The notes: generated by a model not told the origin, from the sequence alone. A stretch of DNA of 24,553 nucleotides from Elusimicrobiota bacterium (GCA_027340875.1 DAIENX010000062.1:1-24553); one strand, 5' to 3'; numbered from the stretch's first letter, positions 4,129 to 23,375 are shown. Numbers and translations: made by a program.

Positions 4129-4159
4129 TCCAGCGGTAGAAAATCTCGGTCCAGGCGCC

Positions 4160-4227
4160 TCTTATTATAAGGTTCGGACCCCCATCTAAAAAGGTAAAAT
4201 ATCAGTTAAAGAGAGGTTACCCCGCCC
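4160..4227 (+). promoter_or_regulatory. Putative sigma70-type promoter region and RBS of the carboxyltransferase gene
   Basis: AT-rich intergenic island with TAAAAT at 4195-4200, TATTAT/TTATAA near 4163-4170, and GAGAGG upstream of ATG 4228. Confidence 0.45.
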
Positions 4228-7971: not shown

Positions 7972-8703
7972 CTAGTGCGCTTCCTCCGCGGAGGGCTTCT
8001 TCCCGATCATGTCGTGCACCAGGAAGTAGAGCACCATCGCGGCCAGTATTATCTGCGTGGCGTAGAAGTTATGCGCGCTGGCCGCGGCGTTCAGCTCGTC
8101 GAAGCGGCCGTACAGCAGCGAGAAGCGGGCCATCACGGTGTTGCCGAAGGCGGCGCCGAAGTAGACCATCAGGAAGTAGATACCGAAGTTGGAGACCTTC
8201 TTTACCGCGCCCTTGTGCTCCACCGAGAAGAAGAAATAGAAGAGCACGCTGATGACGCCGACCGCTATCAGCAGCGCGTTAAAGATGCTGAAGGCCGACA
8301 TGGAGCCCAGCGCGGAGAACGGCTTTATCGTGCCGACTATCTGGCTCATGAAGTCGGTGGCCAGGCTGGCGGGCACCACCAGGCCGGCGCCGTAACCCAT
8401 CAGGAACGTGAAGCCGTACCTGGAGACCCAGGAGATCTTGGGGATGAACTGCGTCACCAGGGAGAGCCCGAGCACCGCCGGGATCAGGACGCCCCAGTCA
8501 TGCGGCGCGTGCGCGAGCGGGTCCCAGACCTTGGGGATCCAGATGTTGTACAGGTAGACCTGGAACCACCAGCCCATTCCGGCGCCGAGGTAGAGGTGCT
8601 CGGCTATCTTGAAGAACGGGTTGTCCTTATAGAGGAAGCTGAAGAGGAATATAGTAAGCCCGGCCGCTATCCAGACGCCGGCGATCATCCATGTTTCTGA
8701 CAT
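7972..8703 (-). CDS. Uncharacterised polytopic membrane protein (4th gene of the DUF6754-like operon)
   Basis: About 243 aa with roughly 7 hydrophobic segments. Motifs FSFLYKDNPFFKIAEHLYLG and FGAAFGNTVMARFSLL. GAGGTG RBS precedes ATG 8703. Confidence 0.85.
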   Translation of the reverse strand: MSETWMIAGVWIAAGLTIFLFSFLYKDNPFFKIAEHLYLGAGMGWWFQVYLYNIWIPKVWDPLAHAPHDWGVLIPAVLGLSLVTQFIPKISWVSRYGFTFLMGYGAGLVVPASLATDFMSQIVGTIKPFSALGSMSAFSIFNALLIAVGVISVLFYFFFSVEHKGAVKKVSNFGIYFLMVYFGAAFGNTVMARFSLLYGRFDELNAAASAHNFYATQIILAAMVLYFLVHDMIGKKPSAEEAH

Positions 8704-8712
8704 AGTCACCTC

Positions 8713-9534
8713 TTAGAGATACCTGATAACGAGAAGTATGATATTCGACGTCAATATCAGGGCCAGCACCAGCAGGTGGCCGAGGTTAAGCGAGTCTATG
8801 CCGGAAGTGCCCTTGCCCGGCTCTTGTATCAGCGACTCGTACTCCGCCGCGCCCTTCATGCCGCCGATCAGCCCCTTGAGTTGGCCGGTCTGCAGGTAGG
8901 GACCGTAACCGGGCTGGCTGATGGCGGTCACTCCGGCCACCAGCGGCACGTTGTATTTGTCTCCCACCAGCGCCACCCAGCTGTCCAGGATGCTGGTGCC
9001 GGTGATGTTGACGACCATCGCCATGTCCTTATAGCTCTTGATACCCTTCATTACCGGCAGCGAGCGGGCGTCCTTGCCGTCCTGGTCCTTGTCGTAGATG
9101 CCGTAGAAGTCGGAAGCCATCTGCGTCATCACGGCGGTAGGATTGGCCATGTAGGGGAAGATCGCGTAGTCGGTGCCGTTCACCTTCTTGAACTCTCCGG
9201 GCACCTTCTCGAAGATCTGCTGTATCAGGCCGGTGGAGCCTGCTATATAGGTCACCACGCCTACGCGCAGGTCCCTGCGGAAAGCGTGCCGGATGACGGC
9301 CGTCGCCTGGGGCTGCAGTTCCGGACGGGTGGACGGGTCGTAGTCGAGAGAGAACAGCACGAACGAGCCCTTAGGCAGCTTGTCCAGCGCCTCGTAGGCG
9401 TTGCGCGTGTCCCTGGCTATCGTCTTGTTCGGCAGCCCTATCGGCCTGATGATAGGAGTAAAAAGCACTATAGCCAGCAACAGGAAGATCCAGCGGCGGT
9501 CTATCTTGAAGAATTTCTGAAGTATTTCCTTCAT
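8713..9534 (-). CDS. Uncharacterised membrane-anchored protein with soluble alpha/beta domain (3rd gene of operon)
   Basis: 273 aa with N- and C-terminal TM helices flanking a soluble domain (DYDPSTRPELQP, PYLQTGQLKGLIGGMKGAAEYE). Intergenic spacing to neighbours is 4 and 9 nt. Confidence 0.85.
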   Translation of the reverse strand: MKEILQKFFKIDRRWIFLLLAIVLFTPIIRPIGLPNKTIARDTRNAYEALDKLPKGSFVLFSLDYDPSTRPELQPQATAVIRHAFRRDLRVGVVTYIAGSTGLIQQIFEKVPGEFKKVNGTDYAIFPYMANPTAVMTQMASDFYGIYDKDQDGKDARSLPVMKGIKSYKDMAMVVNITGTSILDSWVALVGDKYNVPLVAGVTAISQPGYGPYLQTGQLKGLIGGMKGAAEYESLIQEPGKGTSGIDSLNLGHLLVLALILTSNIILLVIRYL

Positions 9535-9538
9535 GAAC

Positions 9539-10207
9539 TCAATCCTTACCCATGTACTGTCTTTCGATGCCGAAGATGATCTTCAGCGAGGTGACCACGG
9601 TGCCTATAGAGATGCCTATCATGATGCCCCGCTTGCCGGCCACCGCGGGCACGCTCATGATCCACTCTATGACCTGGTCCACGCCGTAGTGGGTCCAGCC
9701 CAGCGCCTTGTCCCAGACGATCTGGCCCAGCGGCACCTTGCCGAGTATCAGGATGAAGGCCGCCACGAAAAGGACCAGGGCCTGGCCCGACTTGATCCTG
9801 AAAGAGCGGTAAGCGGTGGAGACGATGTAGAACGCGAGCACCGCGAACATCGTGGCGCTGAGGGGGTTGTAGATGGAGCGGAAGGCCCAGCCGAGGGAAG
9901 TGACCTGACCCGCCTCCATCTGCTTGCCGTGCATGAGCACCGCCGGGACCACCATCGCCGCGAAGCCGATGAAGACGAACAGGCTGTATCCCCAGCCGTC
10001 GGTCCGGCGGCTGATCTTGCTGAAGTGGGAGTAGAACAGGCTTATCAGGCCCAGCAGGAAGGCGAAGGCCGACACGATGTTCTCCCACTTGTTTATCATC
10101 TCCAGATAATCGACCGAGGTCTTGTTAGGTATATAGTAGGAGGCGACGGTGAACAGGCCCGTCACCACCACTATAGCCAGGGGAATATGTTTTTTGATCA
10201 GTTTCAT
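9539..10207 (-). CDS. Uncharacterised polytopic membrane protein (2nd gene of operon)
   Basis: 222 aa with about 6 TM segments. Motifs IYNPLSATMFAVLAFYIVSTAYRSFRIKS and AGKRGIMIG...GIER. 1-nt gap to the upstream gene. Confidence 0.85.
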   Translation of the reverse strand: MKLIKKHIPLAIVVVTGLFTVASYYIPNKTSVDYLEMINKWENIVSAFAFLLGLISLFYSHFSKISRRTDGWGYSLFVFIGFAAMVVPAVLMHGKQMEAGQVTSLGWAFRSIYNPLSATMFAVLAFYIVSTAYRSFRIKSGQALVLFVAAFILILGKVPLGQIVWDKALGWTHYGVDQVIEWIMSVPAVAGKRGIMIGISIGTVVTSLKIIFGIERQYMGKD

Positions 10208-10208
10208 A

Positions 10209-11462
10209 TCAGTAGGCCTTGAAGAGGTTGAGGATGACCTGCACGAAGGAATCCCAGTGCAGCCAGGTGCCGGCGGCCAGCACGATGGCGCCGAAGAACA
10301 CTGCGAGCATCACCACCAGCTTGCCGAAGTCCTGCACCTTGAGGGCGCTCATCAGCATCGGCTCCTTCGACAGGTAGGCGCCGGCGGCGTAAAGCTCCTC
10401 TCCGATCAGCGTGTAGTCGCAGGCGGTGAAGAAGAACGGCAGCTGGTGCTCGATGTCCGTGCCGGCTATCTGGATGGCGCCGGTGGTGGCGCCGACCTCG
10501 GCCAGCAGCAGGGACTCGGCCATGAAGTAGCCCATGAAGAAGCAGGCCGCGGGTTTCTCACGGGAGATCATGCCGTCCACGGAGGCGGCATAGGAGAACT
10601 GGTCGGCGCTGACGAAGTAGTTCAGGTCCTCGCGGTAGGAGTCCGGCCGGCCGGCTTCGAGGTAGGACTGCTTGACCACCTCTTTGCAGACGGTCATCAC
10701 GATGGGGTCGTAATGCGGCACCTTGATGTAGCTGTCGTACTGCGCCACCTTCTTGGAGACCTCGCCCAGGATGAACGTGGAGGCGATGGTGGAGATGGTG
10801 CTCATAGTGCCTATGCCGGGGCAGTAATAGATGGGTTTGCCCATCTCGGTGGCGCGGCCTATGGCCTCGTCGATGGCGTCGAGGCCGGCGATGCGGCGGA
10901 TGAACAGGCCCTTGCGCTTGGCGTGCGAAACGGCCATGAAGAACACCACAACAATGACGATGAGCAGCAGCAGGTTGTTGAGACGGTCCAGGCGGAACCA
11001 GTTGCCGCGCGGCGAAGCTTTGAGCGGCTCGGACTCCGCGTACTGCTTGCCTTTCCTGAGAGCGGCCACTTTCAACCCGAAGACGGTCCCGGGCTTGAAT
11101 TCCCCGAAGAAATCGGCCAGCTCCACCTTGACGGCGTGCTCGGCGGCGCCGCCGTTCCAGGCCCAGAAGGGCAGATCGATATCCTTGCCCTTATTAGCGG
11201 AAGCCGCGAAATCCGCGGCCTTGATCCAGCCGCCGTTCTCCTGCGAGGAGACGAACACCTGGTAGGAAGCGTCGGCGTCGTCGGCGGGATTGACGGGCCA
11301 GCGCAGCAGCAGCGCGTTGCCTACGTCGTACGGCATATCAGCGGCGGTAACGCCCAGCAGCGGCGCGTCCGGAGCTTTCGGAGCGGCCGGCTTGGCCGCG
11401 TTCAGCGGGGCCGCCGCCAGCAGCAGCGGCAGCAGCATGAAGATGGATCGGTTATATTTCAT
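10209..11462 (-). CDS. DUF6754-like membrane protein with signal peptide and N-terminal fibronectin-III-like extracytoplasmic domain
   Basis: Signal peptide, then a beta-rich FnIII-like region (AADMPYDVGNALLLRW...YQVF), a TM helix, then IRRIAGLDAIDEAIGRATEMGKP, AESLLLAEVG, IQIAGT, QLPFF, DYTLIGEELYAAGAYL and a C-terminal TM. The family name is from recollection of these motifs. Confidence 0.75.
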   Translation of the reverse strand: MKYNRSIFMLLPLLLAAAPLNAAKPAAPKAPDAPLLGVTAADMPYDVGNALLLRWPVNPADDADASYQVFVSSQENGGWIKAADFAASANKGKDIDLPFWAWNGGAAEHAVKVELADFFGEFKPGTVFGLKVAALRKGKQYAESEPLKASPRGNWFRLDRLNNLLLLIVIVVVFFMAVSHAKRKGLFIRRIAGLDAIDEAIGRATEMGKPIYYCPGIGTMSTISTIASTFILGEVSKKVAQYDSYIKVPHYDPIVMTVCKEVVKQSYLEAGRPDSYREDLNYFVSADQFSYAASVDGMISREKPAACFFMGYFMAESLLLAEVGATTGAIQIAGTDIEHQLPFFFTACDYTLIGEELYAAGAYLSKEPMLMSALKVQDFGKLVVMLAVFFGAIVLAAGTWLHWDSFVQVILNLFKAY

Positions 11463-11550: not shown

Positions 11551-12552
11551 TTAAACGTAGGGGCAGGCGGCGAAGTGACCCGGGGACTTCTCCTGAAGCT
11601 CGGGGACATGGTCCGCGCATTCCGGGCACGCTATCGGGCAGCGCGTCCTGAAGCCGCAGCCGGAAGGCTTGTTCAGCGGGCTGGGGACATCTCCCTTAAG
11701 GATGATGCGCTCGCCCCTGCGCTTGTACGGATCGGGCTGGGGGGCGGCGGAAAGCAGGGCCTTGGTATACGGATGGACAGGGTTCTTATTTACGTCATGG
11801 CTGCTGCCTATCTCCACCATGTTGCCCAGGTACATTACGGCTATCCGGTCGCTGATATGCTCTACCACGGCCAGGTCGTGCGCCACGAAAAGGTAGGTAA
11901 GGCCGAACTCATCCTGCAGGTCCTGGAGCAGGTTGATGATCTGGGCCTGTATAGAGACGTCGAGGGCGGAAACGGGCTCGTCGGCTATTATGAAGGCCGG
12001 GTTTGTGGCCAGCGCCCGGGCCAGGCCGATACGCTGGCGCTGCCCGCCCGAGAACTCATGGGGATAGCGGGAGGCGTAGGCGGCCTGCAGGCCCACCTTC
12101 TCCAGCAGCCAGGCCACCTTCGCCTTCTTCTCCCTGCGCTTCATCTCCGGCTTGTGGATATCTAGAGGCTCCTCTATGATGGCCTCCACGGACATGCGCG
12201 GGTTGAGGGAGGAATAAGGGTCCTGGAAGACCATCTGCATGCGCGAACGGAACGGGCGCATGGCGGCGCGGCCGAGGTTGGCGATATCGACCATTTTGCC
12301 GGCGGCGTCCGGGAACATTATGCTGCCGGAGCTTACCGGGGCGAGACTGATGAGGGCTTTGCCCACCGTGGTCTTGCCGCAGCCCGACTCGCCCACCAGG
12401 CCCAGCGTCTCGCCGGTCTTCAGGGAGAAGGAGACGCCGTCCACGGCCTTAACCTCGCCCACCTTCTTCATGAAAAGGCCGCCATGTATAGGGAAATGGA
12501 CCTTGAGGTCCTTCACGTCGAGCAGATCGCCGCCGGACCGGGACTTCGTCAT
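11551..12552 (-). CDS. oppF: Oligopeptide/dipeptide ABC transporter ATP-binding subunit (OppF/DppF-like)
   Basis: Walker A GESGCGKTT, FQDPYSSLNPR, signature FSGGQRQR, Walker B IIADEPVSALD, HPYT, and C-terminal GCGFRTRC...C...AC. Confidence 0.93.
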   Translation of the reverse strand: MTKSRSGGDLLDVKDLKVHFPIHGGLFMKKVGEVKAVDGVSFSLKTGETLGLVGESGCGKTTVGKALISLAPVSSGSIMFPDAAGKMVDIANLGRAAMRPFRSRMQMVFQDPYSSLNPRMSVEAIIEEPLDIHKPEMKRREKKAKVAWLLEKVGLQAAYASRYPHEFSGGQRQRIGLARALATNPAFIIADEPVSALDVSIQAQIINLLQDLQDEFGLTYLFVAHDLAVVEHISDRIAVMYLGNMVEIGSSHDVNKNPVHPYTKALLSAAPQPDPYKRRGERIILKGDVPSPLNKPSGCGFRTRCPIACPECADHVPELQEKSPGHFAACPYV

Positions 12553-13553
12553 GACCTGTCCTCCCCGCGCGCCTTGCAGAGATGGCAGCGCACCTGCCTT
12601 CCGGGGGAGACCTCTACGAGCTCCGGCTCCTCCTGGCGGCAGATGTTCATGACCTCCGGACAGCGGTTATTGAACTTGCAGCCCCTGGGGAAACTGAAAA
12701 TGTCCGGTACCATGCCCTCTATGACAGGCAGGCGCTTGCCTGGTTCGTTCTTGAAGCCGGGCAGCGAGCGCAGCAGGCCCTTGGTATAGGGGTGCAGCGG
12801 TTCATCGAAGAGCGGCTTGACGTCGGAGACCTCCTGGATCTTGCCTCCGTACATCACGGCGACCCGCTGGCAAGTCTCGGCCACTACGGCCATGTCGTGG
12901 GTTATAAGCAGTATCGCCGCGTCATGAGTCTTCTTCTTTACGTCCAGCATCAGGTCGAGTATCTGGGCCTGTATCGTCACGTCCAGGGCGGTGGTGGGCT
13001 CGTCGGCTATCAGCAGCGCGGGGTCCGAGGCCAGCGCCATGGCTATCATCACTCGCTGGCGCATACCGCCGGAGAACTGGTGCGGGTAATCATTCAGGCG
13101 GGCCTTCGGGGAAGGGATGCCTACCAGCCCCAGCATCTCCACGGCCCGCTCCTCCACCTGCTTCTCGGTCAGGTCCTGGTGGAAGCGGATGGCCTCCTTG
13201 AGCTGCCAGCCTATCGAGAAGACCGGGTTCAGCGAGGTCATCGGCTCCTGGAAGATCATCGAGATGTCCTTGCCTCTTACCTTGCGCATCTCCGGGTAGG
13301 AGAGCTTCAGCAGGTCCCTGCCGCGGAAGTTTATCTCGCCGTGCGTGATCTCGCCCGGCGGATTAGGGATAAGGCGCAGTATGCTCAGGGCGGTCACGGA
13401 TTTCCCGCAGCCGGACTCCCCGACTAGGCCCAGCACCTCGTTCTCGAATATATGGAAGTCCACGCCGTCCACCGCGCGCGCGGTCCTGTCCTCCACGCGG
13501 AAGGCCGTCTTCAGGCCCTTCACTTCCAGCAGCTTCTTCTTTTCAGCCGTCAT
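12549..13553 (-). CDS. oppD: Oligopeptide/dipeptide ABC transporter ATP-binding subunit (OppD/DppD-like)
   Basis: [44 protein letters not shown] and GCKFNNRC. 4-nt overlap with the next gene. Confidence 0.93.
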
Positions 13554-14935
13554 CAGCGCAACCTCGAGAAGACCTTGGGATCGAAAGCCTCGCGCACGGC
13601 TTCGCCTATCTGCACCACAAGGAACAGCGTGGCGGCCAGCGCTATCGACGGCGTAAGTATAAGATTGGGGTAATACTTCAGGTACTGCATGCCCTGGCTC
13701 ATCAGCGTGCCCCAGCTGGGCGTGCCGACCGGCAGGCCGAAGCCGAGGTAGTCCAGCGAGACCAGCGAGCCGATGAAGGCGACTATGGAGAAAGGCGCGA
13801 AAGTGACCACCGGCACCAGCGAGTTGGGCAGGATATGCTTCATCATCACGGACCAGTCCGTGGCACCCATCGCCTCGGCGGCGTGCACGTAGTCCCTGGC
13901 CTTCTCGCGGTAGAACTCGCCGCGCATGTAGTAGGTCATGCCCAGCCAGGCCTGCAGCGCCACCAGCAGGGCGGCCAGCATCCAGAAGCCGGGCTGCACT
14001 ATGGAGGCGATGATCATTATCATGAACAGGAACGGGATGGAGCCCCAGATCTCGATGAAGCGCTGTATCAGGATGTCCGTCCAGCCTCCGAAATAGCCCA
14101 TGACGCCGCCTACGATAATGCCAATGACGTATCCGATAAAAGCCACCATCAGCGCGAAGGAGAGGGAGATACGGAACCCGTAGACCAGCTGCGCGAAGAC
14201 GTCGGCGCCGGAATCGTCCACCCCCAGTATGTGCTGGCGGCCGGGGGGATAGGGCGGACTGCCGTCCCGGTCGAGCAGATGCTCGCTCGGCGAATAAGGG
14301 TAGAGCGGCATCAATATGAACGCCTTGCCGGCGGCGAAAGCCTCCCTGGTCTTATTTACCAGAGCGATGTCGGTCTCTACGGCCGGGACTATCTCCTTCA
14401 GGTCGGCATAGTCCTGCTTCTCGTCCGCCGTGGAGCCTGGCCGGGCGCCGTACCCGGCTACCTGCCTCCTGAAACCGTCCAGCTCCTCGTTGAGCTCAGC
14501 TATCCGCCGGTCAAAAACGGAAGGGTCCTTCAATTCCGCAGCGAAAAGCCGGTAATCCACCTGGCCGTCGCCCACCTGGCCGAAATCGGACTCCACGTCT
14601 ATATGGCTGAAATCCCTGAAAGGCAGCATCGTGTTGGCCCAGTCGCGAAAAGCGGGGAAGGCTATATGCCCCTCGTAGCGTATCGCCAGCGGCTTGTTGT
14701 TGACCAGGAACTCGAGGAAGAACGACGTAACGAACAGCGTGGTGATGATAAGGAAGGAATAGTGGCCGCGCTTCATCGTCCTGAAGCGCTTGAAACGCTT
14801 CTGCCAGTGCGGGGAGGGCTTCATGTCGAAGCCCAGCTTCTTCCCGGCCTCAACGAACAGGAAGGGGAGCGCCCTGTGCGTCAACAGGTGGCCGGCGGCG
14901 AGGACAAGAGCTGCGCCCAGAACTTTTAATATCAT
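13553..14935 (-). CDS. Peptide ABC transporter permease (YejE/OppC-like) with extra N-terminal helix and periplasmic insertion
   Basis: KRFKRFRTMKRGHYSF, EFLVNNKPL, HILGVDDSGADVFAQLVYGFRISL, EAA loop DYVHAAEAMGA, LDYLGFGLP..PSWG and GEAVREAFDP. ATG 14935 overlaps the upstream stop (ATGA). The ORF-track start at 15580 is spurious. Confidence 0.9.
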   Translation of the reverse strand: MILKVLGAALVLAAGHLLTHRALPFLFVEAGKKLGFDMKPSPHWQKRFKRFRTMKRGHYSFLIITTLFVTSFFLEFLVNNKPLAIRYEGHIAFPAFRDWANTMLPFRDFSHIDVESDFGQVGDGQVDYRLFAAELKDPSVFDRRIAELNEELDGFRRQVAGYGARPGSTADEKQDYADLKEIVPAVETDIALVNKTREAFAAGKAFILMPLYPYSPSEHLLDRDGSPPYPPGRQHILGVDDSGADVFAQLVYGFRISLSFALMVAFIGYVIGIIVGGVMGYFGGWTDILIQRFIEIWGSIPFLFMIMIIASIVQPGFWMLAALLVALQAWLGMTYYMRGEFYREKARDYVHAAEAMGATDWSVMMKHILPNSLVPVVTFAPFSIVAFIGSLVSLDYLGFGLPVGTPSWGTLMSQGMQYLKYYPNLILTPSIALAATLFLVVQIGEAVREAFDPKVFSRLR

Positions 14936-15978
14936 TTGCCGAACCTTATCCGCGGGTCTATCATCGCCCAGATAACGTCGGAGAAGATATTGCCGGTCAG
15001 GCGTATCAGCACCCCGAAGACCATGATCCCCAGAAGGACGGGGTAATCGCGCTGGATGATGGACATGTAGCCCAGCAGGCCCATGCCGGGGATATTGCAG
15101 ATCTTCTCGATAAGGAAGGACCCGGCGAACAGGACGCCCAGCGCCTGGCCTATACCCACGGTAAGAGGTATCAGGGAGTTGCGCATCGCGTGCACGAAGA
15201 TGACGCGCTTCTCGGAAAGGCCTTTCGCGAAGGCGGTGCGCACGTAGTCCGCGCCCAGGTTGTCCAGCAGGGAGTTCTTCATCAGTATCGTCATCGACGC
15301 GAAGCTGCCTATCAGATAGCCGATGATGGGAACTATGGTGTGGTGCAACTGGTCCAGCACCTTGCCCGCCAGGCTCAGCTGGGCCCAGTCGGCGGACCTG
15401 AAGCCGCCCAGAGGCACGAGGTTCCAGAAGCTGCCGCCGCCGAACAGCACCAGCAGCAGCAGGCAGGCCACAAAGCCGGGGATGGAATAGCCCATGAACA
15501 CCAGCACCGACGTAGCGGTGTCGTAGCCCGTCTTGTGCTTGATCGCCTTGCTTACGCCCAGCGGCACGCAGACCAGCCACGAGGCGAAATAGCCGATGAG
15601 ACCGAAATAGACGGAAATGGGGAACTTGGAAATTATCACGTCCAGCACAGGCTCGCCGTGCACGTAGGAGCGGCCGAAGTCCAGGCGCATTATTCCCCAG
15701 AGCCAGCCGGCGTAGCCCACCGGGATGCTCTTGTCCAGGTGGTAATACTCCTTCAGTTCCTTCATGGCCTCCTCGGGGATCTGCTGCTCGGACTCCTCGC
15801 TGGCCATGCCCGCCGCGCCGCCCTCTCCCATCATCTGCATCTTGATCTGCAGCTGGGCCTGTTCGATAGGACCACCGGGAACGACGCGGAACACGGCGTA
15901 GACCATGAAGGTTATGGCTATGAAAGTCACCGGTATCAGCAGCACCCGGCGGATGAAATAAGTCGTCATTCCGTGCAT
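14932..15978 (-). CDS. Peptide ABC transporter permease (YejB/OppB-like)
   Basis: YFIRRVLL, VPGGPIEQ, LDFGRSY, KFPIS, YSIPGF, DYVRTAFAKGL, HAMRNSLIP, RDYP and DPRIRF. Start is 15978 or 15969. Confidence 0.92.
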   Translation of the reverse strand: MHGMTTYFIRRVLLIPVTFIAITFMVYAVFRVVPGGPIEQAQLQIKMQMMGEGGAAGMASEESEQQIPEEAMKELKEYYHLDKSIPVGYAGWLWGIMRLDFGRSYVHGEPVLDVIISKFPISVYFGLIGYFASWLVCVPLGVSKAIKHKTGYDTATSVLVFMGYSIPGFVACLLLLVLFGGGSFWNLVPLGGFRSADWAQLSLAGKVLDQLHHTIVPIIGYLIGSFASMTILMKNSLLDNLGADYVRTAFAKGLSEKRVIFVHAMRNSLIPLTVGIGQALGVLFAGSFLIEKICNIPGMGLLGYMSIIQRDYPVLLGIMVFGVLIRLTGNIFSDVIWAMIDPRIRFGK

Positions 15979-15983
15979 AGGTC

Positions 15984-17774
15984 TTATTTACCTTCCGCCC
16001 ACGGGTCCTGGTCCGTGACCCCTACCGGCAGCTTGGCGCCTTTCTCCATCGCCTCGTCCAGGGCCTTTTCCTTCCGGGGATCCAGCCACCACATCGTGGT
16101 TATATCCGAAGCGTCCCCTATCTTGGAGAAATACCGCTCCGGGTGGCCGAACCTGTCGTAGTACATCACCCGGCTGAAATTGGAGGTCCAGGCCAGGGCG
16201 TAGGGATAGGCCCTGAAGATCAGACCGTCTATCTTGTGAACGAGCTTTATCTGCGTCTTCCTGTCCGTGGCCAGGTCGTATTCGCTGCAGAGTTCGTCGA
16301 CCTCCTTGTTCTTGAAGCCGGGGGTATTGTTGTTGTTCAGGGTATCGGCCAGGTCCGAACCCCAGGAGCTGATCGGGTTGGGGAACAGTATCGCGCCCCA
16401 GGGCTGGAACGCTATGGTGAAGTTGCGCTCCCCTATCTTCTTCATCAGCGTGGCCGGGTCGATGAGCTTCAGGTTGAACTTTATTCCGGCGCGCTGGTAG
16501 TCCTCCTGGATCACCTTGAAGATCCGGTCCCAGCTGGGCCAGCCGTACTCCAGCGTGACCTCGAAGATCTCGCCCTTGTCGTTGACCAGCCAGCCGTCCT
16601 TGTTGCGCTTCTTCCAGCCGGCCCTGGCCAGCAGCAGGCGGGCCATGCGCGGGTTATAGCGCACCTTCGGGTTGTCCGGGTTCGCCCAGATGCTGCCGGG
16701 GAAATAGCTGTCTATCGGAGTGTACTGGTTGAAGAAAAGCTTCTCATTGAGGCGCTTGCGGTTGAGCAGGTAGGCGAAGGCCTTGCGGACGTTGCGGTCG
16801 TTGAACGGGGGCTTGCGCATGTTGAACGCGAAGCCGGTGGCGCCCTGCGGGGCGCCGGTGATTATCTTGCGCTTCTGTATCCAGCCGTCCTTGACCTTGT
16901 CGAAGTCGCATTCCTGCGCCCAGCGCTGCGCCTTGCTTACCACGTAGTAATCCAGCTCGCCCTTCTTGAACTTCTCCCAGGCCAACTCCTCGTCCAGGAT
17001 CACCTGCCAGGTGATCCTGTCGAAATTATAGAGGCCGGTATTGTGACGCTCGCCCCAGCCCCAGTAATCCTTCCTGCGGGTGAGGGTCACGGATTCCTGG
17101 TTCTTGATGTCCTCAGGCTTCAGTTCGTAGGGCCCGGAACCCATCTGCATCTTCCAGTTGTAGTCCGAAAGGTATTTCTCGCCGGTCAGCTTCCCCATTT
17201 CCTTTGCCGGATAGATGGCCATGCCGCCGAAATAAAGGAAAAGGCGCCAGTGGACCTTCTTCGTGTGCACGGTGACGACACTGGGGCTCACCACCACAGG
17301 CTTGTCGTAGCTGCCGCCCCACATCATCAGGGAATAAGGATCCTTGATGTCCTTGCGGGTACGGAATTCCCACGTAGCCACAACGTCTTCTGCGGTGACA
17401 GGACTGCCGTCCGCCCAGCGCGCCTTCGGGTTTATATGGAAATAGAACGTGCGCTTGTCAGGGGAGATCTTCCAGTAGTCCGCCAGACCCGGCATGTATT
17501 CCAGAGTTTCAGGATGCAGCCCGACCAGCGCTTCGTAGACAAGACCCTGCATCTGGCTGAGCGTGGAAAGGTTGGAGTTCGGGCCCTCGGTGCGCAGCGT
17601 AGGGGGGAAGGAGGTCCAGAAGAAACGAAGCGTGCCGCCCTTCACGGCTTGGGGTGAACCTATCAGCGGGAAATCCCTGCTGGTCTCCCAGCCGGCGGGG
17701 TTGAAGTCATCGGCCGCGGCGAAAGCGGCACTGAAGAAAAGCAGGGCGGAGAGAATTATCCTGGTTCTCGGCAT
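15984..17774 (-). CDS. Peptide ABC transporter substrate-binding protein (family 5, YejA-like)
   Basis: Signal peptide MPRTRIILSALLFFSAAFAAA, PQAVKGGTLR, ARWADGSPVTAEDV, MGSGPY, DYWG, GLYNFDRI and FNMRKPPFNDRNVRKA. ATG 17774 is preferred to the TTG at 17828, which overlaps the upstream gene. Confidence 0.9.
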   Translation of the reverse strand: MPRTRIILSALLFFSAAFAAADDFNPAGWETSRDFPLIGSPQAVKGGTLRFFWTSFPPTLRTEGPNSNLSTLSQMQGLVYEALVGLHPETLEYMPGLADYWKISPDKRTFYFHINPKARWADGSPVTAEDVVATWEFRTRKDIKDPYSLMMWGGSYDKPVVVSPSVVTVHTKKVHWRLFLYFGGMAIYPAKEMGKLTGEKYLSDYNWKMQMGSGPYELKPEDIKNQESVTLTRRKDYWGWGERHNTGLYNFDRITWQVILDEELAWEKFKKGELDYYVVSKAQRWAQECDFDKVKDGWIQKRKIITGAPQGATGFAFNMRKPPFNDRNVRKAFAYLLNRKRLNEKLFFNQYTPIDSYFPGSIWANPDNPKVRYNPRMARLLLARAGWKKRNKDGWLVNDKGEIFEVTLEYGWPSWDRIFKVIQEDYQRAGIKFNLKLIDPATLMKKIGERNFTIAFQPWGAILFPNPISSWGSDLADTLNNNNTPGFKNKEVDELCSEYDLATDRKTQIKLVHKIDGLIFRAYPYALAWTSNFSRVMYYDRFGHPERYFSKIGDASDITTMWWLDPRKEKALDEAMEKGAKLPVGVTDQDPWAEGK

Positions 17775-17785
17775 TTGTCCCGTAT

Positions 17786-17794
17786 AAAATAGCA
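17786..17794 (-). promoter_or_regulatory. Extended -10 promoter candidate for the ABC operon
   Basis: The - strand reads TG-C-TATTTT, 11 nt before ATG 17774, in an AT-rich 37-nt gap. Confidence 0.45.
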
Positions 17795-17811
17795 AATATC
17801 CCGGAGGTCTC

Positions 17812-19992
17812 CTAGGGTCTGGCGTCAATATTCTTCATTATTATCTCCTTCATGACGTCGAAAGCCGGCGCGGTCCCGGGAGGCAGCTTGTCGGCCAGCT
17901 CGTACACCTCTATCCGGTTGAAGACGCGCCCGCCCTCGGTCTCGCTGAAGGAGAAGACGCCGCGCACGTGCCTGGCCCAGAAGTCGGAGAAGACGGCGCG
18001 GGCCCTGGCATCCCAGTAGAACATACGGTAATCGCGGCCCAGCCGGATCGAGTCCGCGGGATTGAGCAGTATGTGGGTCACGCCGTCCCTGCGCAGGCTG
18101 GCGTAAAGGTCGTCGCCGCTTACGGCGGCAGAGGAATACTCCACTATCGCCGTCCGGTCGTAGACGGAACTGACGATGAAGTCGCGCTTCAGGTAAAAGC
18201 TCTTCTCATCGCCTATCATCAGGACCTTTGAACCGGGCGGCGTATGCTCGTTGATGAACTTTATCCCGGAATAGCAACTGTAAGGATAGGTCGGCTGGCT
18301 GTGGGAGAGATAATCCTCGGCGGATACCGCCCCGGTCAGCGGCCGCCAGCGGCCCTGAGTGTAGAAGATGTAGGCCGCCCAGTAGAGCGCCGCCAGACAG
18401 GAGGCTATGACCGCCCCTTTGAGCAGGTTTTTCAGCGCCCTATGGCCGCCGGAGAACAAGTAGACGGCCAGCAGCAGACCCGCGGCCGGGTAGGCAGGCA
18501 TCATGAAGCGCACCATAGTGGTGGATACCGACCAACCGGCCCAGACGGTCAGAAAGAAGGTCCAGAGGGAGGCGACGGCCGCGCCGGCAGGAGCGCCCAG
18601 CAGGAACAGCAGCGGCAGGAAGGCCAGAAAGAGGGGGGTAAAGAACTCCGAATTCGGGACCTGACCCATCGTCACTTTCCACGGGGTCAGCAGCCAGCTC
18701 GAAGGGGTCAGGTGCCCCATCTGGGCCGCTTGACTTATGAAATCCTTCAGCTTCTGCGGATCGGCGCTCGACCCGGTGCCGAACAGGCCCGAGCCGAAAG
18801 GGAACACCGGGTTGCCGGTATAGAGCCAGTTCTTGACCAGCCAGGGCCCTGTGAAGACCGTGGCGATAAAAGTGAAGAGCGCCAGGTTGCGGAAAGCCGT
18901 ACCGGGCCTGGAACGGTCGGACCAGGCGTAGGCCAGCATGACTCCTGCGGTCGGGAAAAAACCCGTATATTTGACGCCCATGGCCAGGCCGCAGAACACG
19001 GCGGCCAGCCAGAGCGGCCTGTCGTCACCGGCCGCGCGCAAGAGCGCCGCGTACAGGCCCAGCGTCGAGAACAGCATCAGCAGCGACTCGGTGCCGGACG
19101 ACCAGGAAGCGAACATCGCGTGGCATACCGTATAGGATATCAGCGCGCCCCAGAGGCCGGCCCGCAGCGACAGGAAGCGGACGCCGAAAGCCAGGGCCGC
19201 GGCGGCCGTAAGGACGCCGGCGGAATAGTTGACGAACTTCGCGAGCGGCGCGCCCTTCAGCAGCAGGGCCGCGGCATAGATCATGCCGTGCGTGAACGGC
19301 AGGTCGGAATAGAAATTGTACGGCATCGGCGCGAAGCCGTGCATTATCACGAAGAAGTTTGGGACGGCCAGATGATAGACCAGCGCGTCGTAGAAGATCT
19401 CCGGGGCCAGCGCGCCGGCCAGGTTGAGCAGCATGGCCAGCAGCAGGACTCCCAGCGCCGCGAGGTCCCACGGGCCGAGCTCGCCCGGCGCCGCCTCCAC
19501 CGGCGGCAGCGGGCTGCCGCGCAGCTGCCAGGCCCCCAAGGCCAGGGCGGCCAGCATCAGGAGCGCCACAGGCCAGAGATACAGGACCTTGAGCGTCGCC
19601 AGGACGAAGACATAAGCGGCCAGCAGGCCCAACCCGGCCCCGCAGGAGAAAACCGACTCTTCCAGCGCCCCGCGGAAGGAAAGGCCGGCGGCCCTGAGCG
19701 CGGCGCGGCCCAGCGAGAAGCAGGAAAAAAGGAACGCGGCCGCGGCCAGCAGGTTGAGCAGATGCCCGGGCAGTACGGAGACCAGCCCGGCGGTGTACTG
19801 CTCCGGCGCCAGCATGGCCGACAGCGCGTCCAGCCGGGGCATGAACTTCGAATAGTAGGACTTCAGGACGAAGGCGGCCCAGCCGCCCGCGACAGGCCAG
19901 ACCAGCCAGGAGGGGAAACGGGGCTTTTCCTCCGCCGGCCGCGCGGAAGGCTGAGGGACGGGCTGCCGTTCTTTCCTGTGTCTTTTGGCCAT
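17812..19992 (-). CDS. Large polytopic membrane protein, probable GT-C fold glycosyltransferase (ArnT/PMT-like)
   Basis: 726 aa with many TM segments. Loop motif PEIFYDALVYHLAVP, plus GLAMGVKYTG, PWLVKNWLYTGNPVFPF and RFMMP, and a C-terminal soluble domain (FINEHTPPGSKVL...GVTHIL). Confidence 0.7.
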   Translation of the reverse strand: MAKRHRKERQPVPQPSARPAEEKPRFPSWLVWPVAGGWAAFVLKSYYSKFMPRLDALSAMLAPEQYTAGLVSVLPGHLLNLLAAAAFLFSCFSLGRAALRAAGLSFRGALEESVFSCGAGLGLLAAYVFVLATLKVLYLWPVALLMLAALALGAWQLRGSPLPPVEAAPGELGPWDLAALGVLLLAMLLNLAGALAPEIFYDALVYHLAVPNFFVIMHGFAPMPYNFYSDLPFTHGMIYAAALLLKGAPLAKFVNYSAGVLTAAAALAFGVRFLSLRAGLWGALISYTVCHAMFASWSSGTESLLMLFSTLGLYAALLRAAGDDRPLWLAAVFCGLAMGVKYTGFFPTAGVMLAYAWSDRSRPGTAFRNLALFTFIATVFTGPWLVKNWLYTGNPVFPFGSGLFGTGSSADPQKLKDFISQAAQMGHLTPSSWLLTPWKVTMGQVPNSEFFTPLFLAFLPLLFLLGAPAGAAVASLWTFFLTVWAGWSVSTTMVRFMMPAYPAAGLLLAVYLFSGGHRALKNLLKGAVIASCLAALYWAAYIFYTQGRWRPLTGAVSAEDYLSHSQPTYPYSCYSGIKFINEHTPPGSKVLMIGDEKSFYLKRDFIVSSVYDRTAIVEYSSAAVSGDDLYASLRRDGVTHILLNPADSIRLGRDYRMFYWDARARAVFSDFWARHVRGVFSFSETEGGRVFNRIEVYELADKLPPGTAPAFDVMKEIIMKNIDARP

Positions 19993-19995
19993 ATC

Positions 19996-20054
19996 AAAAA
20001 GATGACCGGCGGGCCGGCGGAGGTAAGCCCCTCCCGTCCGTCCGCCGGTCGCCT
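19996..20054 (-). terminator. Intrinsic terminator after the 374-aa gene
   Basis: On the - strand, GACCGGCGG...GGAGG-loop-CCTCC...CCGCCGGTC forms a hairpin followed by ATCTTTTT. Confidence 0.65.
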
Positions 20055-20061
20055 GGCGTGG

Positions 20062-21186
20062 TTATTTCTCGAGCACCTCTATGTTGGCGCGGGGGACCAC
20101 TATGACCTCGCCGCCGTCCAACTTCACCTCGAGCACGCGGGCGTGCGATTCGCTGCCGATGACCGTGAGCTCCGGAGGCAGCGACTTCACGGTGCCGATC
20201 ACGCCGAAATGCGGCTCCCGGATGATCCGTATAGGGTCGCCGGGCTCTATCCACCCGCGCCCCTGGTCCCGCTTCACCTCGCTGACGCCTTTCGGCATGC
20301 CCGGGACGATGATCTCGGGGCGCATGACTCCCGCGCGTATCTGCGTGGCGCCGGACACGGAAGCATGCTCGCCGTTGCGGGAGCTGAGCAGCTTGAAGGT
20401 GTACTCGGCCATCGGGATCATGCCGAAGCCCTCTGTCACGACCAGCGTGGTGCCGATCTTCTCGGAGCCCGTGACGGCTACCCCTATATCGTAGCCGAGC
20501 AGCTGGCGCAGGTCGCGGTCGTATATGCCGCCGACGACTATCGCGTTGACGCCCAGCTCGATGGCCCGCTGTATGGTGGCCAGGCTGGCGTGCTTGCCGC
20601 CCACCACGATCTTCCCGCGGTGGTGCTCCTTGATGGCCTCCGCCTCGAGTTCCTCGTCGGGGCTTTCAACAGCCACGCAGATCTCGCCGTTGGTCTCGCC
20701 GCCGATGCCGAAGATCCCCTGTATGAAGGTGCCTTCGGCCTCCACAGTCACTCCGAAGCCGGGAGTGATCTCGACGATCTTGCCCTTCACGTAGGCCTTC
20801 ACAGGCAGGACCTTCGGTGGCTCGCGCAGCAGGACCTGGCCCGTCACCGGTGAGATGGATTCCACCGTGCCGGCGACCGGCGACTCTATGGAGGTCTTGA
20901 ACCATTTCAGGAAAGGCTTGTTCTCGGCGATCACCTCTCCGGCGGCGACCGTATCTCCTTCCCTCTTCAGCATGAAGCCCGGGATCTCCTCGGGCGACAC
21001 GGCGAGCCGGTTGGCGACGTTGACCGAGAACACCTTGCCGGGCAGCTCGGTCTGGGCCACCACGTCCAGCGCGTCCACGCAGGCGCCCATCTCGGCCATC
21101 ACCTTTCCCGGGATAGGCAGCAGGCGCTTCTTGTGCAGCATCGTGCTGGGCATTCCCTTGAGTCCTGGAGTATACGCATGAGCCAT
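20062..21186 (-). CDS. Uncharacterised soluble protein with barrel-sandwich-hybrid-like N-terminus and KOW/SH3-like C-terminus (partner of the GlmL-like ATPase)
   Basis: 374 aa with an AGGAGA RBS. Hybrid-motif-like segments GKVMAEMGACVDALDVVA and KREGDTVAAGEVIAE...SPVAGTVESI. Gly-rich middle region (IQGIFGIGGE, VVTEGFG, GATQIRAGVMRPEI). C-terminus GDPIRIIREPHFGVIGTV...VPRANIE. Confidence 0.8.
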   Translation of the reverse strand: MAHAYTPGLKGMPSTMLHKKRLLPIPGKVMAEMGACVDALDVVAQTELPGKVFSVNVANRLAVSPEEIPGFMLKREGDTVAAGEVIAENKPFLKWFKTSIESPVAGTVESISPVTGQVLLREPPKVLPVKAYVKGKIVEITPGFGVTVEAEGTFIQGIFGIGGETNGEICVAVESPDEELEAEAIKEHHRGKIVVGGKHASLATIQRAIELGVNAIVVGGIYDRDLRQLLGYDIGVAVTGSEKIGTTLVVTEGFGMIPMAEYTFKLLSSRNGEHASVSGATQIRAGVMRPEIIVPGMPKGVSEVKRDQGRGWIEPGDPIRIIREPHFGVIGTVKSLPPELTVIGSESHARVLEVKLDGGEVIVVPRANIEVLEK

Positions 21187-21215
21187 AGTTTATCTCCTAG
21201 TAGAAGTTCTGCGCG

Positions 21216-23009
21216 TCAGACGGGGTACATCCCCATTGCCTTGTACCATTTGGCCAGGTCGGCCCGGCGCTTCGCGGGCTCCTTGGACAGGTTGAACGGC
21301 CGGCCGCGGCCGTCGAGCACCAGGCCCACGACCCCGCCCTCTATCTCCGCCTCCAGCTTGTTGCCGGGGCCGGCGCCCATGTCGAAGCCCTTGGCGGGCC
21401 TGGCCACCAGCTTGGCCTTCGGAGCGGCCAGCGGGACATGCTGCATATCGCCGAAGCGGAGCTGCCCGTTCTCACGGCTGCCGTCGGGACAGGTGATCTC
21501 CCACTCCATTATCACCTGGCCTTCCTTGGCCAGGCCCTTCGGGGCCAGGCAGGTGCCGAGCCGCACGAGGCAGTCGTGGTAGAACACGTCGAGCGCCGCC
21601 TTCTCGCTGATCTGGGCGAGCACGCCGAGGTGCGGCATCATGAAGATGGAGTCCACGGCCATGCGCGTGACGCCCTCGGGCTGGTAGGCGTCTATCATCA
21701 GCATCATAGACTGTGTGCGGCGGGGGGAATGGGCGAGGATTCCGCCCGAGCCTATCACGTAGTCCAGCCGCATCACGTTGATCAGGCTCTGGCCGGAGGA
21801 GGTCTGCTCGAACGCGTCGGAGATCGAGCGCTCCTGCTGCACGCCCTTCAGGCCCACGGCGAGGGCCTTGTGTTGCTCGAAGGCCAGCCGCAGCGCCTCG
21901 CGGGCCGCGGAGTGCTCAATCTGCAGGTCTTCCACCGTCTGCGGTATCGTGGTGGGTCGGATCATCTTGTTCTTCAGGCGGTCGCGCAGGTCCTGCTCGT
22001 CTATATCGAACGGCAGCCAGCGCAGGATGTTCGGCAGGCCGGCCTCGGCCATCACGTTGGAGATGGAATAGCTCATGCCCAGGTTGGCGCTGACGGTGCG
22101 GTTGAACACCTCGTCGAAGACGCTGAACACGTCGGTGGTCGCGCCGCCGATATCTACGGCCAGCACGTTGAACTTATTGGCCTTCGCGAACTTCTCGGTC
22201 ATCGTGCCGACGGCTGCCGGCGTGGGCATGATCGGGGCGCCTACCATTTTCATCAGCCTGGGGTAGCCGGGCGCCTGCTGCATCACGTGCTCGAGGAAGA
22301 TGTCGTGGATCTTGTGGCGCGCCGGCATCAGGTTCTCTCGCTCCAGCGTGGGCCGCAGGTTTTCGGTCAGGATCAGAGCGGTGCCCTCGCCCAGGATGTC
22401 CTTTATCTGCTGGTGGGCCTTATTGTTGCCGGCGTAGATGACCGGGAGCTTGTAGGAGGCGCCCAGGCGCGGCTTCGGGTCCGCGGCCTTCAGGAACTGC
22501 GCCAGCTCCACCACGTGCGTCACGGTGCCGCCGTCGGTGCCGCCTGAAAGCAGCATCATGTCGGGGCGCAGCTGGCGGATGCGTTCGATCTTCTCGTGGT
22601 CGGCGCGGCCGTCGTTGGAGGCCAGCACGTCCATCACTATCGCGCCGGCGCCGAGCGCGCAGCGCTGGGCCGACTCGCCGGTCATCGCCTTCACCGCTCC
22701 GGCCACCATCATCTGCAGGCCGCCCCCGGCGGAGGAAGTGGAAACGTAGATATCGGCGCCGGTCAGGCCGACGTTGGGAGTGATGATCTTCTCGCCGTCG
22801 AGCAGCTTGCGCCCGGAGAGCTCCTCCACCTCGGTTATCGCGTTAAGGACGCCTTTGGTCACGTCCTCGAACGGGGCTTCCACCGTGGTGGGGGCCTCGC
22901 CGCGGAAGGTCTGGCGGTAGGTGTCGCCCTTCTTCTCGATCAGGATGGCCTTGGTGGTCGTGCTGCCGCAGTCGGTGGCTATTATGGTTTCAAGGTCTTT
23001 CTTTGACAT
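21216..23009 (-). CDS. GlmL/MutL (glutamate-mutase-L) family ASKHA-fold ATPase, long form
   Basis: Phosphate-1 motif ATDCGSTTTK, TSSAGGGL, AQRCALGAGA, LLSGGTDGG, PVIYAGN, IMPTPAAV, phosphate-2 motif VDIGGATTDVFS and adenosine motif IGSGG. 597 aa. Confidence 0.85.
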   Translation of the reverse strand: MSKKDLETIIATDCGSTTTKAILIEKKGDTYRQTFRGEAPTTVEAPFEDVTKGVLNAITEVEELSGRKLLDGEKIITPNVGLTGADIYVSTSSAGGGLQMMVAGAVKAMTGESAQRCALGAGAIVMDVLASNDGRADHEKIERIRQLRPDMMLLSGGTDGGTVTHVVELAQFLKAADPKPRLGASYKLPVIYAGNNKAHQQIKDILGEGTALILTENLRPTLERENLMPARHKIHDIFLEHVMQQAPGYPRLMKMVGAPIMPTPAAVGTMTEKFAKANKFNVLAVDIGGATTDVFSVFDEVFNRTVSANLGMSYSISNVMAEAGLPNILRWLPFDIDEQDLRDRLKNKMIRPTTIPQTVEDLQIEHSAAREALRLAFEQHKALAVGLKGVQQERSISDAFEQTSSGQSLINVMRLDYVIGSGGILAHSPRRTQSMMLMIDAYQPEGVTRMAVDSIFMMPHLGVLAQISEKAALDVFYHDCLVRLGTCLAPKGLAKEGQVIMEWEITCPDGSRENGQLRFGDMQHVPLAAPKAKLVARPAKGFDMGAGPGNKLEAEIEGGVVGLVLDGRGRPFNLSKEPAKRRADLAKWYKAMGMYPV

Positions 23010-23322
23010 TTGTATCGTCCTTTTCGGGTGGTTCGGCGCCGAGCCTCTCTACGAAGTAGTCTACCGCTTTCCTGTTCTCGAGGAGCGTCCTGTACTTCTC
23101 GACCTCCTCCTTCCTGAAAGCCATCGCGAGCAGGGGCTCCAGGAACGTCACCCCCTGCGCTCCGAGCCCGTGCATGGGGCGGGTGCCCTCCAGGGCGAAG
23201 ACCGCCACGTCGCCCATGCCCCGTTCCCGGACCTTCTGCGCCAGCGCGTCCAGCAGCTTTTTCTCCTCCGGAGTCGGCTCGGGCGGCTCGGGGATCTTGA
23301 AAGCGTTGTCCCAGATACCCAT
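22990..23322 (-). CDS. Small uncharacterised protein, first gene of the glmL-like operon
   Basis: About 110 aa (EEKKLLDALAQKVRERGM...ALEGTRPM...GAQ...FLEP...LLENR). It overlaps the glmL-like start by 20 nt. Start is 23328 or 23322. Confidence 0.75.
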   Translation of the reverse strand: MGIWDNAFKIPEPPEPTPEEKKLLDALAQKVRERGMGDVAVFALEGTRPMHGLGAQGVTFLEPLLAMAFRKEEVEKYRTLLENRKAVDYFVERLGAEPPEKDDTNVKERP

Positions 23323-23330
23323 CGCCATTC

Positions 23331-23339
23331 ATTTTAACA
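23331..23339 (-). promoter_or_regulatory. Extended -10 promoter (TG-T-TAAAAT) of the glmL-like operon
   Basis: The - strand reads TGTTAAAAT, 8 nt before ATG 23322. No SD is visible. Confidence 0.55.
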
Positions 23340-23375
23340 TAAAAATAAATGCGCGTCCCTGACATAAGGACGCGC
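23340..23375 (-). terminator. Intrinsic terminator after the DUF192 gene
   Basis: 8-bp stem GCGCGTCC / GGACGCGC with a 9-nt loop, followed on the - strand by ATTTATTTTT. Confidence 0.75.

Follow-up and report, generated by a model that had tools for sequence, protein, structure and literature searches.

The DNA analysed here (the window) is a contig of 24,553 nucleotides from an Elusimicrobiota bacterium (GCA_027340875.1 DAIENX010000062.1:1-24553; contig C8 of a 2.8-Mb metagenome-assembled genome that is 92% complete and 5.5% contaminated). Its minus strand carries two groups of genes that very probably make up one functional system of seven genes rather than a helper of a mutase. The first group is a trio for soluble proteins, comprising a small protein of 112 amino acids (22990-23328), a 597-amino-acid ATPase of the ASKHA fold that represents a long form of the GlmL family PF13941 (21216-23009), and a partner protein of 374 amino acids (20062-21186). 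The second is a membrane module of four genes, encoding a DUF6754 protein of 417 amino acids (10209-11462) followed by membrane proteins of 222 (9539-10207), 273 (8713-9534), and 245 amino acids (7972-8709). The explanation that we favour as a whole, mechanism included, with a probability of about 0.6, is that the trio forms the soluble cytoplasmic half and the four-gene module the membrane half of a conserved seven-gene system. It occurs almost universally in Armatimonadota and also in Nitrospira, Binatia, Elusimicrobia, and other phyla.

An original prediction, made from the sequence of the window alone, had described a three-gene unit at 20062-23339 and had suggested that it works together with a co-oriented four-gene membrane operon about 8.6 kb away. 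All three open reading frames of the trio were found there on the minus strand, and the DUF6754 gene starts exactly 8600 nucleotides downstream of the trio on the same strand. The small-protein gene overlaps the start of the ATPase gene by 20 nucleotides, and a gap of 29 nucleotides separates the ATPase gene from that of the partner.

Co-occurrence and gene order

The co-occurrence of the two halves was assessed in 493 genomes of three phyla (201 Elusimicrobiota, 151 Nitrospirota, and 141 Armatimonadota). Among the Elusimicrobiota the partner, DUF6754, and PF13941 were each found in 12 genomes, and these were the same 12. The Nitrospirota gave 18 genomes with the partner, 18 with DUF6754, and 19 with PF13941; the same 18 genomes held all three, with the genes lying within about 4 kb of each other in 18 of 18, and the additional PF13941 match was a fragment at a contig end. 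DUF6754 was present in 123 Armatimonadota genomes and PF13941 in 125, so that 123 had both, two had PF13941 only, none had DUF6754 only, and 16 had neither. In at least 12 of the Armatimonadota genomes the ATPase and DUF6754 genes share a contig but are separated by more than 100 kb, and in at least 18 they are adjacent; such co-occurrence in the absence of linkage argues for a functional tie rather than hitch-hiking. In these samples ATPase and DUF6754 share genomes in three phyla, and the partner shares them in two.

Gene order was surveyed from both sides. On the partner side, species genomes were searched with the partner protein, yielding 61 loci. The ATPase gene lies directly upstream of the partner gene in 54 of the 56 loci with room for it (the exceptions are two Armatimonadota loci, L060 and L063), and a DUF6754 gene lies downstream on the same strand in 47 of the 61. 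For the 14 loci without DUF6754, a full 10-kb flank was available in only three (L012, L060, and L063). Partner and DUF6754 directly adjoin in nine of the 47 loci, including all four from Binatia and Nitrospirota, where a GlmL-like gene, the partner gene, and the DUF6754 gene with its three membrane genes are directly contiguous. The other loci hold inserts between the two: a gene for a polytopic membrane protein corresponding to the 726-amino-acid protein of the window (29 loci), this gene together with an Opp-type importer (four), the importer alone (three), or another insert (two). Contig permitting, the 222-, 273-, and 245-amino-acid genes follow DUF6754 in that order. Contiguous operons in other phyla therefore bear out the co-clustering of ATPase and DUF6754 that the original prediction had put forward.

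On the DUF6754 side, the best 80 of 603 metagenome stretches were scanned. The four-gene membrane module was complete in all 46 loci with room for it. Where at least 3.5 kb of upstream sequence was available, 26 of 40 loci also held the ATPase and partner genes; with that much sequence on both flanks, the figure was 16 of 23. Of the two units the membrane module is thus the wider spread, and its genes can occur away from that of the ATPase.

In other phyla DUF6754 adjoins the partner, so the 8.6 kb that separate them in the window are due to an insertion specific to this lineage, of a membrane gene and an Opp operon, into an otherwise contiguous seven-gene cluster. The first inserted gene encodes the 726-amino-acid polytopic membrane protein (17812-19992, minus strand), begins 69 nucleotides past the partner gene, and overlaps the start of OppA by 17 nucleotides. 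Its product has a C-terminal soluble domain and belongs to no Pfam family; a weak match to the NCBIfam model LIC_10190 lies below the cut-off. No other insert between the halves is as common in Elusimicrobia. Of 47 related loci with both partner and DUF6754, 33 have this gene in between; it is absent in Binatia and Nitrospirota. The remainder of the insert is an Opp/Dpp-type ABC importer of five genes (11551-17828, minus strand; Pfam matches to an SBP_bac_5 binding protein, two permeases, and two ATPases), which ends 88 nucleotides before DUF6754. An Opp importer stands between the halves in seven of the 47 loci, four with the 726-amino-acid gene and three without it.

The long-form ATPase and its separation from GlmL

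The ATPase is a member of PF13941 (MutL protein; E 1.2e-126, 423.6 bits against a cut-off of 27). It carries the stretches DCGSTTTK at residue 13, GGTDGG at 156, DIGGATTD at 286, GSGG at 420, and GVVGLVLDGRGRPF at 559, in which we take the phosphate-1, phosphate-2, and adenosine motifs of ASKHA nomenclature to be represented. Across 20 aligned long-form sequences, these stretches show little or no variation, and column identity averages 73%. The protein ends in a conserved C-terminal extension of about 120 amino acids, whose terminal block GG..G...D.RGRP is invariant in the alignment. Both the intact set of nucleotide-binding motifs and the distinct C-terminal region that had been reported for this protein were accordingly located.

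Scores under the NCBIfam models set the protein apart from GlmL. It reaches 231.3 bits under NF040745 (the GlmL equivalog, methylaspartate mutase accessory; cut-off 475), 211.3 bits under NF040744 (Or-4, GlmL-related, ornithine degradation; cut-off 600), and 161.6 bits under TIGR01319 (GlmL subfamily; cut-off 204.05). As a control, a short form of 464 amino acids from Armatimonadota passes both NF040745 (597 bits) and TIGR01319 (451 bits), and four further long forms, from Binatia, Nitrospirota, a metagenome contig, and the same Armatimonadota genome as the short form, fail NF040745 with 222-243 bits. We judge from these comparisons that the ATPase is not an orthologue of GlmL or of a reactivase, because it fails all three NCBIfam models and is 30% identical to the short form as against 65-67% to the long forms of Binatia and Nitrospirota. 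This agrees with the proposal that its function differs from that of GlmL and the reactivases. A sequence search of the PDB with the ATPase gave no relative at E ≤ 1.

The short form used as control (L144, 4191-5585; contig C620 of genome G449) lies above the GlmL equivalog cut-off and is preceded by URO-D-like, octopine-dehydrogenase-like, and GalT-like genes, with no mutase among them. The sole Met_asp_mut_E match in that genome is marginal (29.8 bits) and lies on a different contig; a "true" GlmL short form is therefore not always found beside glutamate mutase.

Membership of the actin-fold superfamily, the very high sequence conservation of the ATPase, and the constant company of small partners and a membrane module would also suit a membrane-anchored scaffold. 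MreB, FtsA, and MamK are polymerising actin-like proteins, and a putative ASKHA polymer could in the same manner be anchored or positioned by the membrane proteins of the module. We regard such a filament as decidedly unlikely, however, since NCBIfam describes the nearest relatives of the ATPase, GlmL and Or-4, as accessory proteins of enzymes, and no known filament family was matched in Pfam.

Two further copies of the gene call for separate mention. A second set of DUF192, small-protein, ATPase, and partner genes is present in the source genome (L001; contig C77, 8822-12758), with protein identities of 78-98% to the set in the window. It was considered as a paralogue and rejected as such, given that its ATPase is 98% identical and its neighbours are the same; it is a strain-variant duplicate, which probably reflects strain heterogeneity or contamination of the bin (5.5%). 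In an Acidimicrobiia metagenome-assembled genome (L059; G203, contig C9, 4912-6326), the long-form ATPase gene lies in two pieces; its reading frame is broken and holds one in-frame TGA. The match to the partner ends at residue 254. Either the copy is decaying or the assembly is at fault here.

Independence from B12-dependent mutases

No B12 mutase gene was found in the window, and the only DxHxxG among its plausible genes is a chance match in a carboxyltransferase, so the original statement that mutase genes and a B12-binding motif are missing from the window holds. It applies to the window only, as the source genome does hold B12 enzymes elsewhere. A gene for Lys-AminoMut_A, the alpha subunit of a lysine 5,6-aminomutase-type enzyme, is split over two contig ends (C83, 9650-11008, and C6, 29884-30865); its C6 piece has a B12-binding gene for a neighbour. 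A fused gene of the methylmalonyl-CoA mutase type is located on a third contig (C13, 29131-32313). The presence of these genes implies that the organism uses adenosylcobalamin enzymes. Met_asp_mut_E had no match in the source genome, which is 92% complete.

These enzymes raise the question of whether the ATPase is a reactivase or chaperone for a B12 mutase, in this genome the lysine 5,6-aminomutase-type enzyme, with an incidental link to DUF6754. It is the sole PF13941 gene of the source genome, bar the strain-variant copy, and Lys-AminoMut_A, which occurs in 11 of the 201 Elusimicrobiota genomes, is present in eight of the 12 that carry the ATPase. This explanation is nevertheless disfavoured, and we hold it to be very improbable. 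Four of the 12 carriers, which are 96-98% complete, are without Lys-AminoMut_A, and three genomes have the aminomutase without the ATPase. Among the 151 Nitrospirota genomes none has PF09043 (Lys-AminoMut_A) and none has PF06368 (Met_asp_mut_E) over the cut-off, yet 18 carry the system. In the source genome, moreover, the aminomutase lies on other contigs than the ATPase, and the scores of the ATPase fall below the GlmL and Or-4 equivalog cut-offs. The system is independent of glutamate mutase and of lysine/ornithine aminomutase. Independence from glmE and glmS had been anticipated, and the opposite pattern, in which the long form tracks B12 mutases and not DUF6754, was not seen in Elusimicrobiota or Nitrospirota.

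The partner protein and the small protein

The partner belongs to a large family, with 2415 clusters at E ≤ 1e-3 and 470 at E ≤ 1e-30. Two members are fusions with the ATPase at the N-terminus and the partner behind it (P0022, 995 amino acids, and P0100, 1003 amino acids). The AlphaFold2 model of the partner (mean predicted local distance difference test score, pLDDT, 92.3; predicted template modelling score 0.83) has three domains: a barrel-sandwich hybrid at about residues 16-150, a swivelling beta/beta/alpha domain at 152-296, and a KOW/SH3-like barrel at 313-374. Residues 49-123 of the barrel-sandwich superpose on NqrA (4u9o; Z 7.9, root-mean-square deviation 2.0 over 64 residues), and this domain also matches RnfC (8ahx_C, Z 7.7). 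The best match of the swivel domain is enzyme I of the phosphotransferase system (2wqd; Z 9.6, root-mean-square deviation 2.6 over 105 residues), followed by rifampin phosphotransferase (5hv1) and RraA (3c8o), both with Z 8.6. The third domain matches NusG and Spt5 (Z 8.8). No PDB chain in the fold search spans the whole partner.

An alignment of 94 partner sequences has R21, R284, R289, E370, and glycine loops as invariant residues, with the conserved loops QGIFGxGGE, TEGFG, and GATQIRAGVxRPE. No histidine, cysteine, or lysine is found among the invariant or 90%-conserved columns, and the partner is therefore not a carrier of phosphohistidine, biotin, or lipoate. A phosphohistidine relay through the GGKHAS stretch was considered and rejected, as H199 is not conserved; a biotinyl or lipoyl carrier was likewise rejected, as K90 is not conserved and no lysine reaches 90%. 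The partner falls short of the Pfam families Biotin_lipoyl (16.2 against a cut-off of 22.1) and RnfC_N and NqrA_N (PF13375, 19.7 of 25.6 bits; PF05896, 19.1 of 25 bits).

The small protein matches no family in Pfam, NCBIfam, or PADLOC. It has a conserved hydrophobic hairpin (FLES..P..FLGSQ..FL.P), and its homologues can be aligned across phyla. Its gene lies directly upstream of the ATPase gene in 26 of 26 metagenome loci with room for it. The two share a single reading frame in L086, and in L117 the small protein is found next to a stand-alone membrane module.

The membrane module

The DUF6754 protein belongs to PF20539 (371 bits, cut-off 27), and its AlphaFold2 model has a pLDDT of 86.8. It is composed, in order, of a signal peptide, an FN3-like domain (residues 39-149), a transmembrane helix, a Rossmann-like core (192-366), and a second transmembrane helix. 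By the positive-inside rule the core is predicted to be cytoplasmic and the FN3-like domain periplasmic. No other part of the membrane module is as conserved as the core, which has 39 invariant columns in 52 sequences. Structures that match the core are generic Rossmann folds with tied scores, including the C-terminal domain of PGK (Z 10.3), LpxB (Z 10.1), KtrC (Z 9.9), and Sir2 (Z 9.9). The remaining fold matches of the protein are to generic FN3 domains.

The other three proteins belong to unnamed families. The 222-amino-acid protein, with about six transmembrane helices predicted from hydropathy, is the second of the module and always comes next after DUF6754. The bitopic 273-amino-acid protein, the third in every complete locus, has an N-terminal transmembrane helix, a soluble domain of about 220 amino acids predicted to be periplasmic by the positive-inside rule, and a C-terminal transmembrane helix. 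The fourth, of 245 amino acids, is polytopic, and the ESM Atlas places it near unnamed clusters from Planctomycetota, Nitrospirota, and Armatimonadota. ESM Atlas sequence neighbours were in all cases DUF6754 or unnamed clusters. Pfam searches with 30, 34, and 31 members of the three unnamed families (34 for the 222-amino-acid family) gave scattered single matches only, and a PDB sequence search with the membrane proteins gave nothing but weak matches of the FN3 type. Paralogy among the four membrane proteins was considered and rejected (hhalign probabilities of 0.6% or less). For the eight proteins searched against PADLOC-DB no family was found at E ≤ 0.01, so the system does not match a known anti-phage defence.

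A complex prediction in which the partner and the small protein were set against the DUF6754 core (residues 182-370) gave ipSAE values of 0.01 and 0.00 against a mark of 0.32, which count neither for nor against an interaction.

Some neighbours of stand-alone modules bear on a possible role. In two loci (L113, 11932-13494, and L121, 10726-12303) a gene for a Wzi-like capsule-assembly outer-membrane protein directly follows the module on the same strand, a weak hint of a role in the envelope or in polysaccharides. Type-IX-secretion sorting domains are also encoded near stand-alone modules, and a MazG gene precedes the module in one locus.

A proposed mechanism and its alternatives

In the mechanism that we propose, the long-form ASKHA protein would bind and hydrolyse ATP and undergo a nucleotide-driven conformational switch like that of Hsp70 and of the reactivases of B12 enzymes. 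It would act with the partner, which with a swivel domain and two small barrels is suited to the part of a mobile adaptor. The ATPase-partner pair would bind the membrane complex from its cytoplasmic side, with the Rossmann-like core of DUF6754 as the most plausible docking site, and the small protein, through its hydrophobic hairpin, may serve as a tether. So arranged, the pair would power or gate a step of transport or assembly across the inner membrane, with a cargo that is possibly envelope-related; the periplasmic FN3 domain and the Wzi-like and polytopic membrane neighbours are weak hints that point to the cell envelope.

The odds that the system is a physically coupled, ATP-driven machine seem to us about even. 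More tentatively, and we think it rather doubtful, the system could be an inner-membrane translocase or assembly machine of a new class, driven by ATP through a motor of the actin/Hsp70 fold instead of an ABC, P-type, rotary, or AAA+ motor. Such a machine would transmit force through the swivel-domain adaptor to the Rossmann-like cytoplasmic domain clamped between two membrane helices.

Several points weigh against the favoured explanation. Contact between them, ATP hydrolysis, and coupling are inferred. Genomes within a phylum are related, so the co-occurrence counts represent few independent events; the Elusimicrobiota carriers all fall in one family (11 of its 11 members plus the source genome), and the Armatimonadota count covers two families, DUF6754 and PF13941. 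The DUF6754-side scan, for its part, leans to relatives of the window lineage. In seven of its 23 well-flanked metagenome loci the membrane module stands without a nearby ATPase. Tandem copies of the module occur in five loci (L107, L119, L131, L134, and L137), where two modules are arranged head to tail with no ATPase or partner there; L107 also has the cut start of a third DUF6754 gene. The membrane module may consequently work alone or with a distant ATPase gene. Two Armatimonadota loci (L060, 10001-11119, and L063, 10001-11128) encode partner paralogues, 45-46% identical, without the ATPase; these adjoin a methyltransferase gene or a DUF4153 gene, and the ATPase is found elsewhere in the same genomes. 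Finally, the fold matches of the partner and DUF6754 models are to common domains and name no function.

An alternative is a metabolic coupling. The membrane module would then be a transporter or sensor that is complete in itself, and the ATPase and partner would act, without contact with it, as a cytoplasmic enzyme on the transported compound; a kinase or an ATP-dependent modifier belonging to the sugar-kinase/acetate-kinase branch of the ASKHA proteins would be an example. The module occurring alone and in tandem, and the frequent lack of linkage between the halves in Armatimonadota, are in keeping with it, and inserts that always fall between the halves suggest two separable units. The folds of the partner also recur in phosphotransfer proteins, as the matches to 2wqd and 5hv1 illustrate. 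However, the partner has no conserved histidine, cysteine, or lysine to hold a phosphoryl, biotinyl, or lipoyl group, a conservation of 65-67% across phyla, as in the ATPase, would be expected of a machine component with numerous contacts more than of a kinase for small molecules, and no metabolic enzyme gene recurs beside the cluster. We consider this alternative, including the enzyme given as its example, unlikely, and continue to favour a single system with a soluble and a membrane half.

If this is correct, a widespread bacterial membrane system has been overlooked because its best-conserved protein is automatically annotated as "glutamate mutase L". An ASKHA-fold ATPase on a dedicated membrane complex would be a new kind of energy-coupling module in bacterial envelope biology, and a systematic annotation error would be corrected. 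A simple rule would separate the long form from true GlmL: a score under NF040745 of less than 475, a length of about 600 amino acids, a GG..G...D.RGRP tail, and an adjoining gene for the 374-amino-acid partner. The co-occurrence data likewise define a set of seven genes for experimenters.

Transcription signals and other genes of the window

From the small protein to the 245-amino-acid protein, 13 minus-strand genes are all co-directional with intergenic gaps of 88 nucleotides or less, and because of this a single long transcript may extend over all of them. The trio had been described as running from promoter to terminator. Hairpins do flank it, with a strong terminator-like one ahead (23351-23375, minus strand; 10-bp stem and T-rich tail), which closes the upstream DUF192 gene, and a weak one after it (20005-20018, minus strand; 5-bp stem) within the 69-nucleotide gap past the partner gene. 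No sigma-70-like site was found in the gap upstream of the trio, and the description is thus only half borne out.

Within the Opp operon, the open reading frame of the second permease (13553-15580, minus strand; 675 amino acids) overlaps the first permease by 649 nucleotides and has its Pfam domain from residue 487, so that the first in-frame start codon is probably not the true one, which would lie far downstream. On the plus strand, a multidomain protein of 1104 amino acids with acyl carrier protein, ketoreductase, and polyketide-synthase-type dehydratase domains is encoded within 185-5859, followed by genes for a 4'-phosphopantetheinyl transferase and a carboxyltransferase. This region looks like part of a polyketide or polyunsaturated-fatty-acid-type synthase locus truncated by the start of the contig.

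Comparison with known systems

As a whole, the seven-gene system matches none of the known systems, and among the papers listed in searches none mentioned DUF6754 or PF13941 or gave an account of the system. Its parts do resemble those of several others. The closest are GlmL/MutL (NF040745, TIGR01319) and Or-4 (NF040744), which have the PF13941 family and the ASKHA fold in common with the ATPase. The ATPase aligns with GlmL over residues 10-476 and has the same nucleotide-binding motifs, but it adds the C-terminal extension of about 120 amino acids, a fixed 374-amino-acid partner, and the small protein, and it is linked to a membrane module where GlmL is linked to a mutase.

The partner can be compared with two groups of proteins. 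NqrA and RnfC, peripheral subunits of Na+-NQR and Rnf, have a similar barrel-sandwich, a likeness at the level of fold only, and like them the partner is a soluble protein encoded beside membrane subunits. Unlike them, it has no domain for flavin, NADH, or Fe-S, and the module's membrane proteins are unrelated to Nqr or Rnf subunits. In the enzymes that utilise phosphoenolpyruvate, such as enzyme I of the phosphotransferase system and rifampin phosphotransferase, the swivelling phosphohistidine domain resembles the middle domain of the partner. The partner, in contrast, lacks a conserved phosphorylatable histidine and has GATQIRAG as its conserved loop; a phosphohistidine relay is not supported, because no histidine is conserved in the 94 sequences.

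The reactivases DdrAB/GdrAB and EutA are ASKHA-type ATPases that free B12 enzymes of damaged cofactor, and in their large subunit a swivelling domain is joined to an Hsp70-like ATPase domain. No reactivase chain was among the 50 fold matches listed for the middle domain of the partner, and a similarity is still possible. The likeness of the DdrA/GdrA/EutA type to the present system would lie in the pairing of an ATPase with a swivel domain, which are here found on separate or fused proteins. The differences are that the system has no B12-enzyme client, its likely client being the membrane complex, and that the partner adds the barrel-sandwich and KOW domains. The design of the reactivases is the model for the nucleotide-driven conformational switch proposed here.

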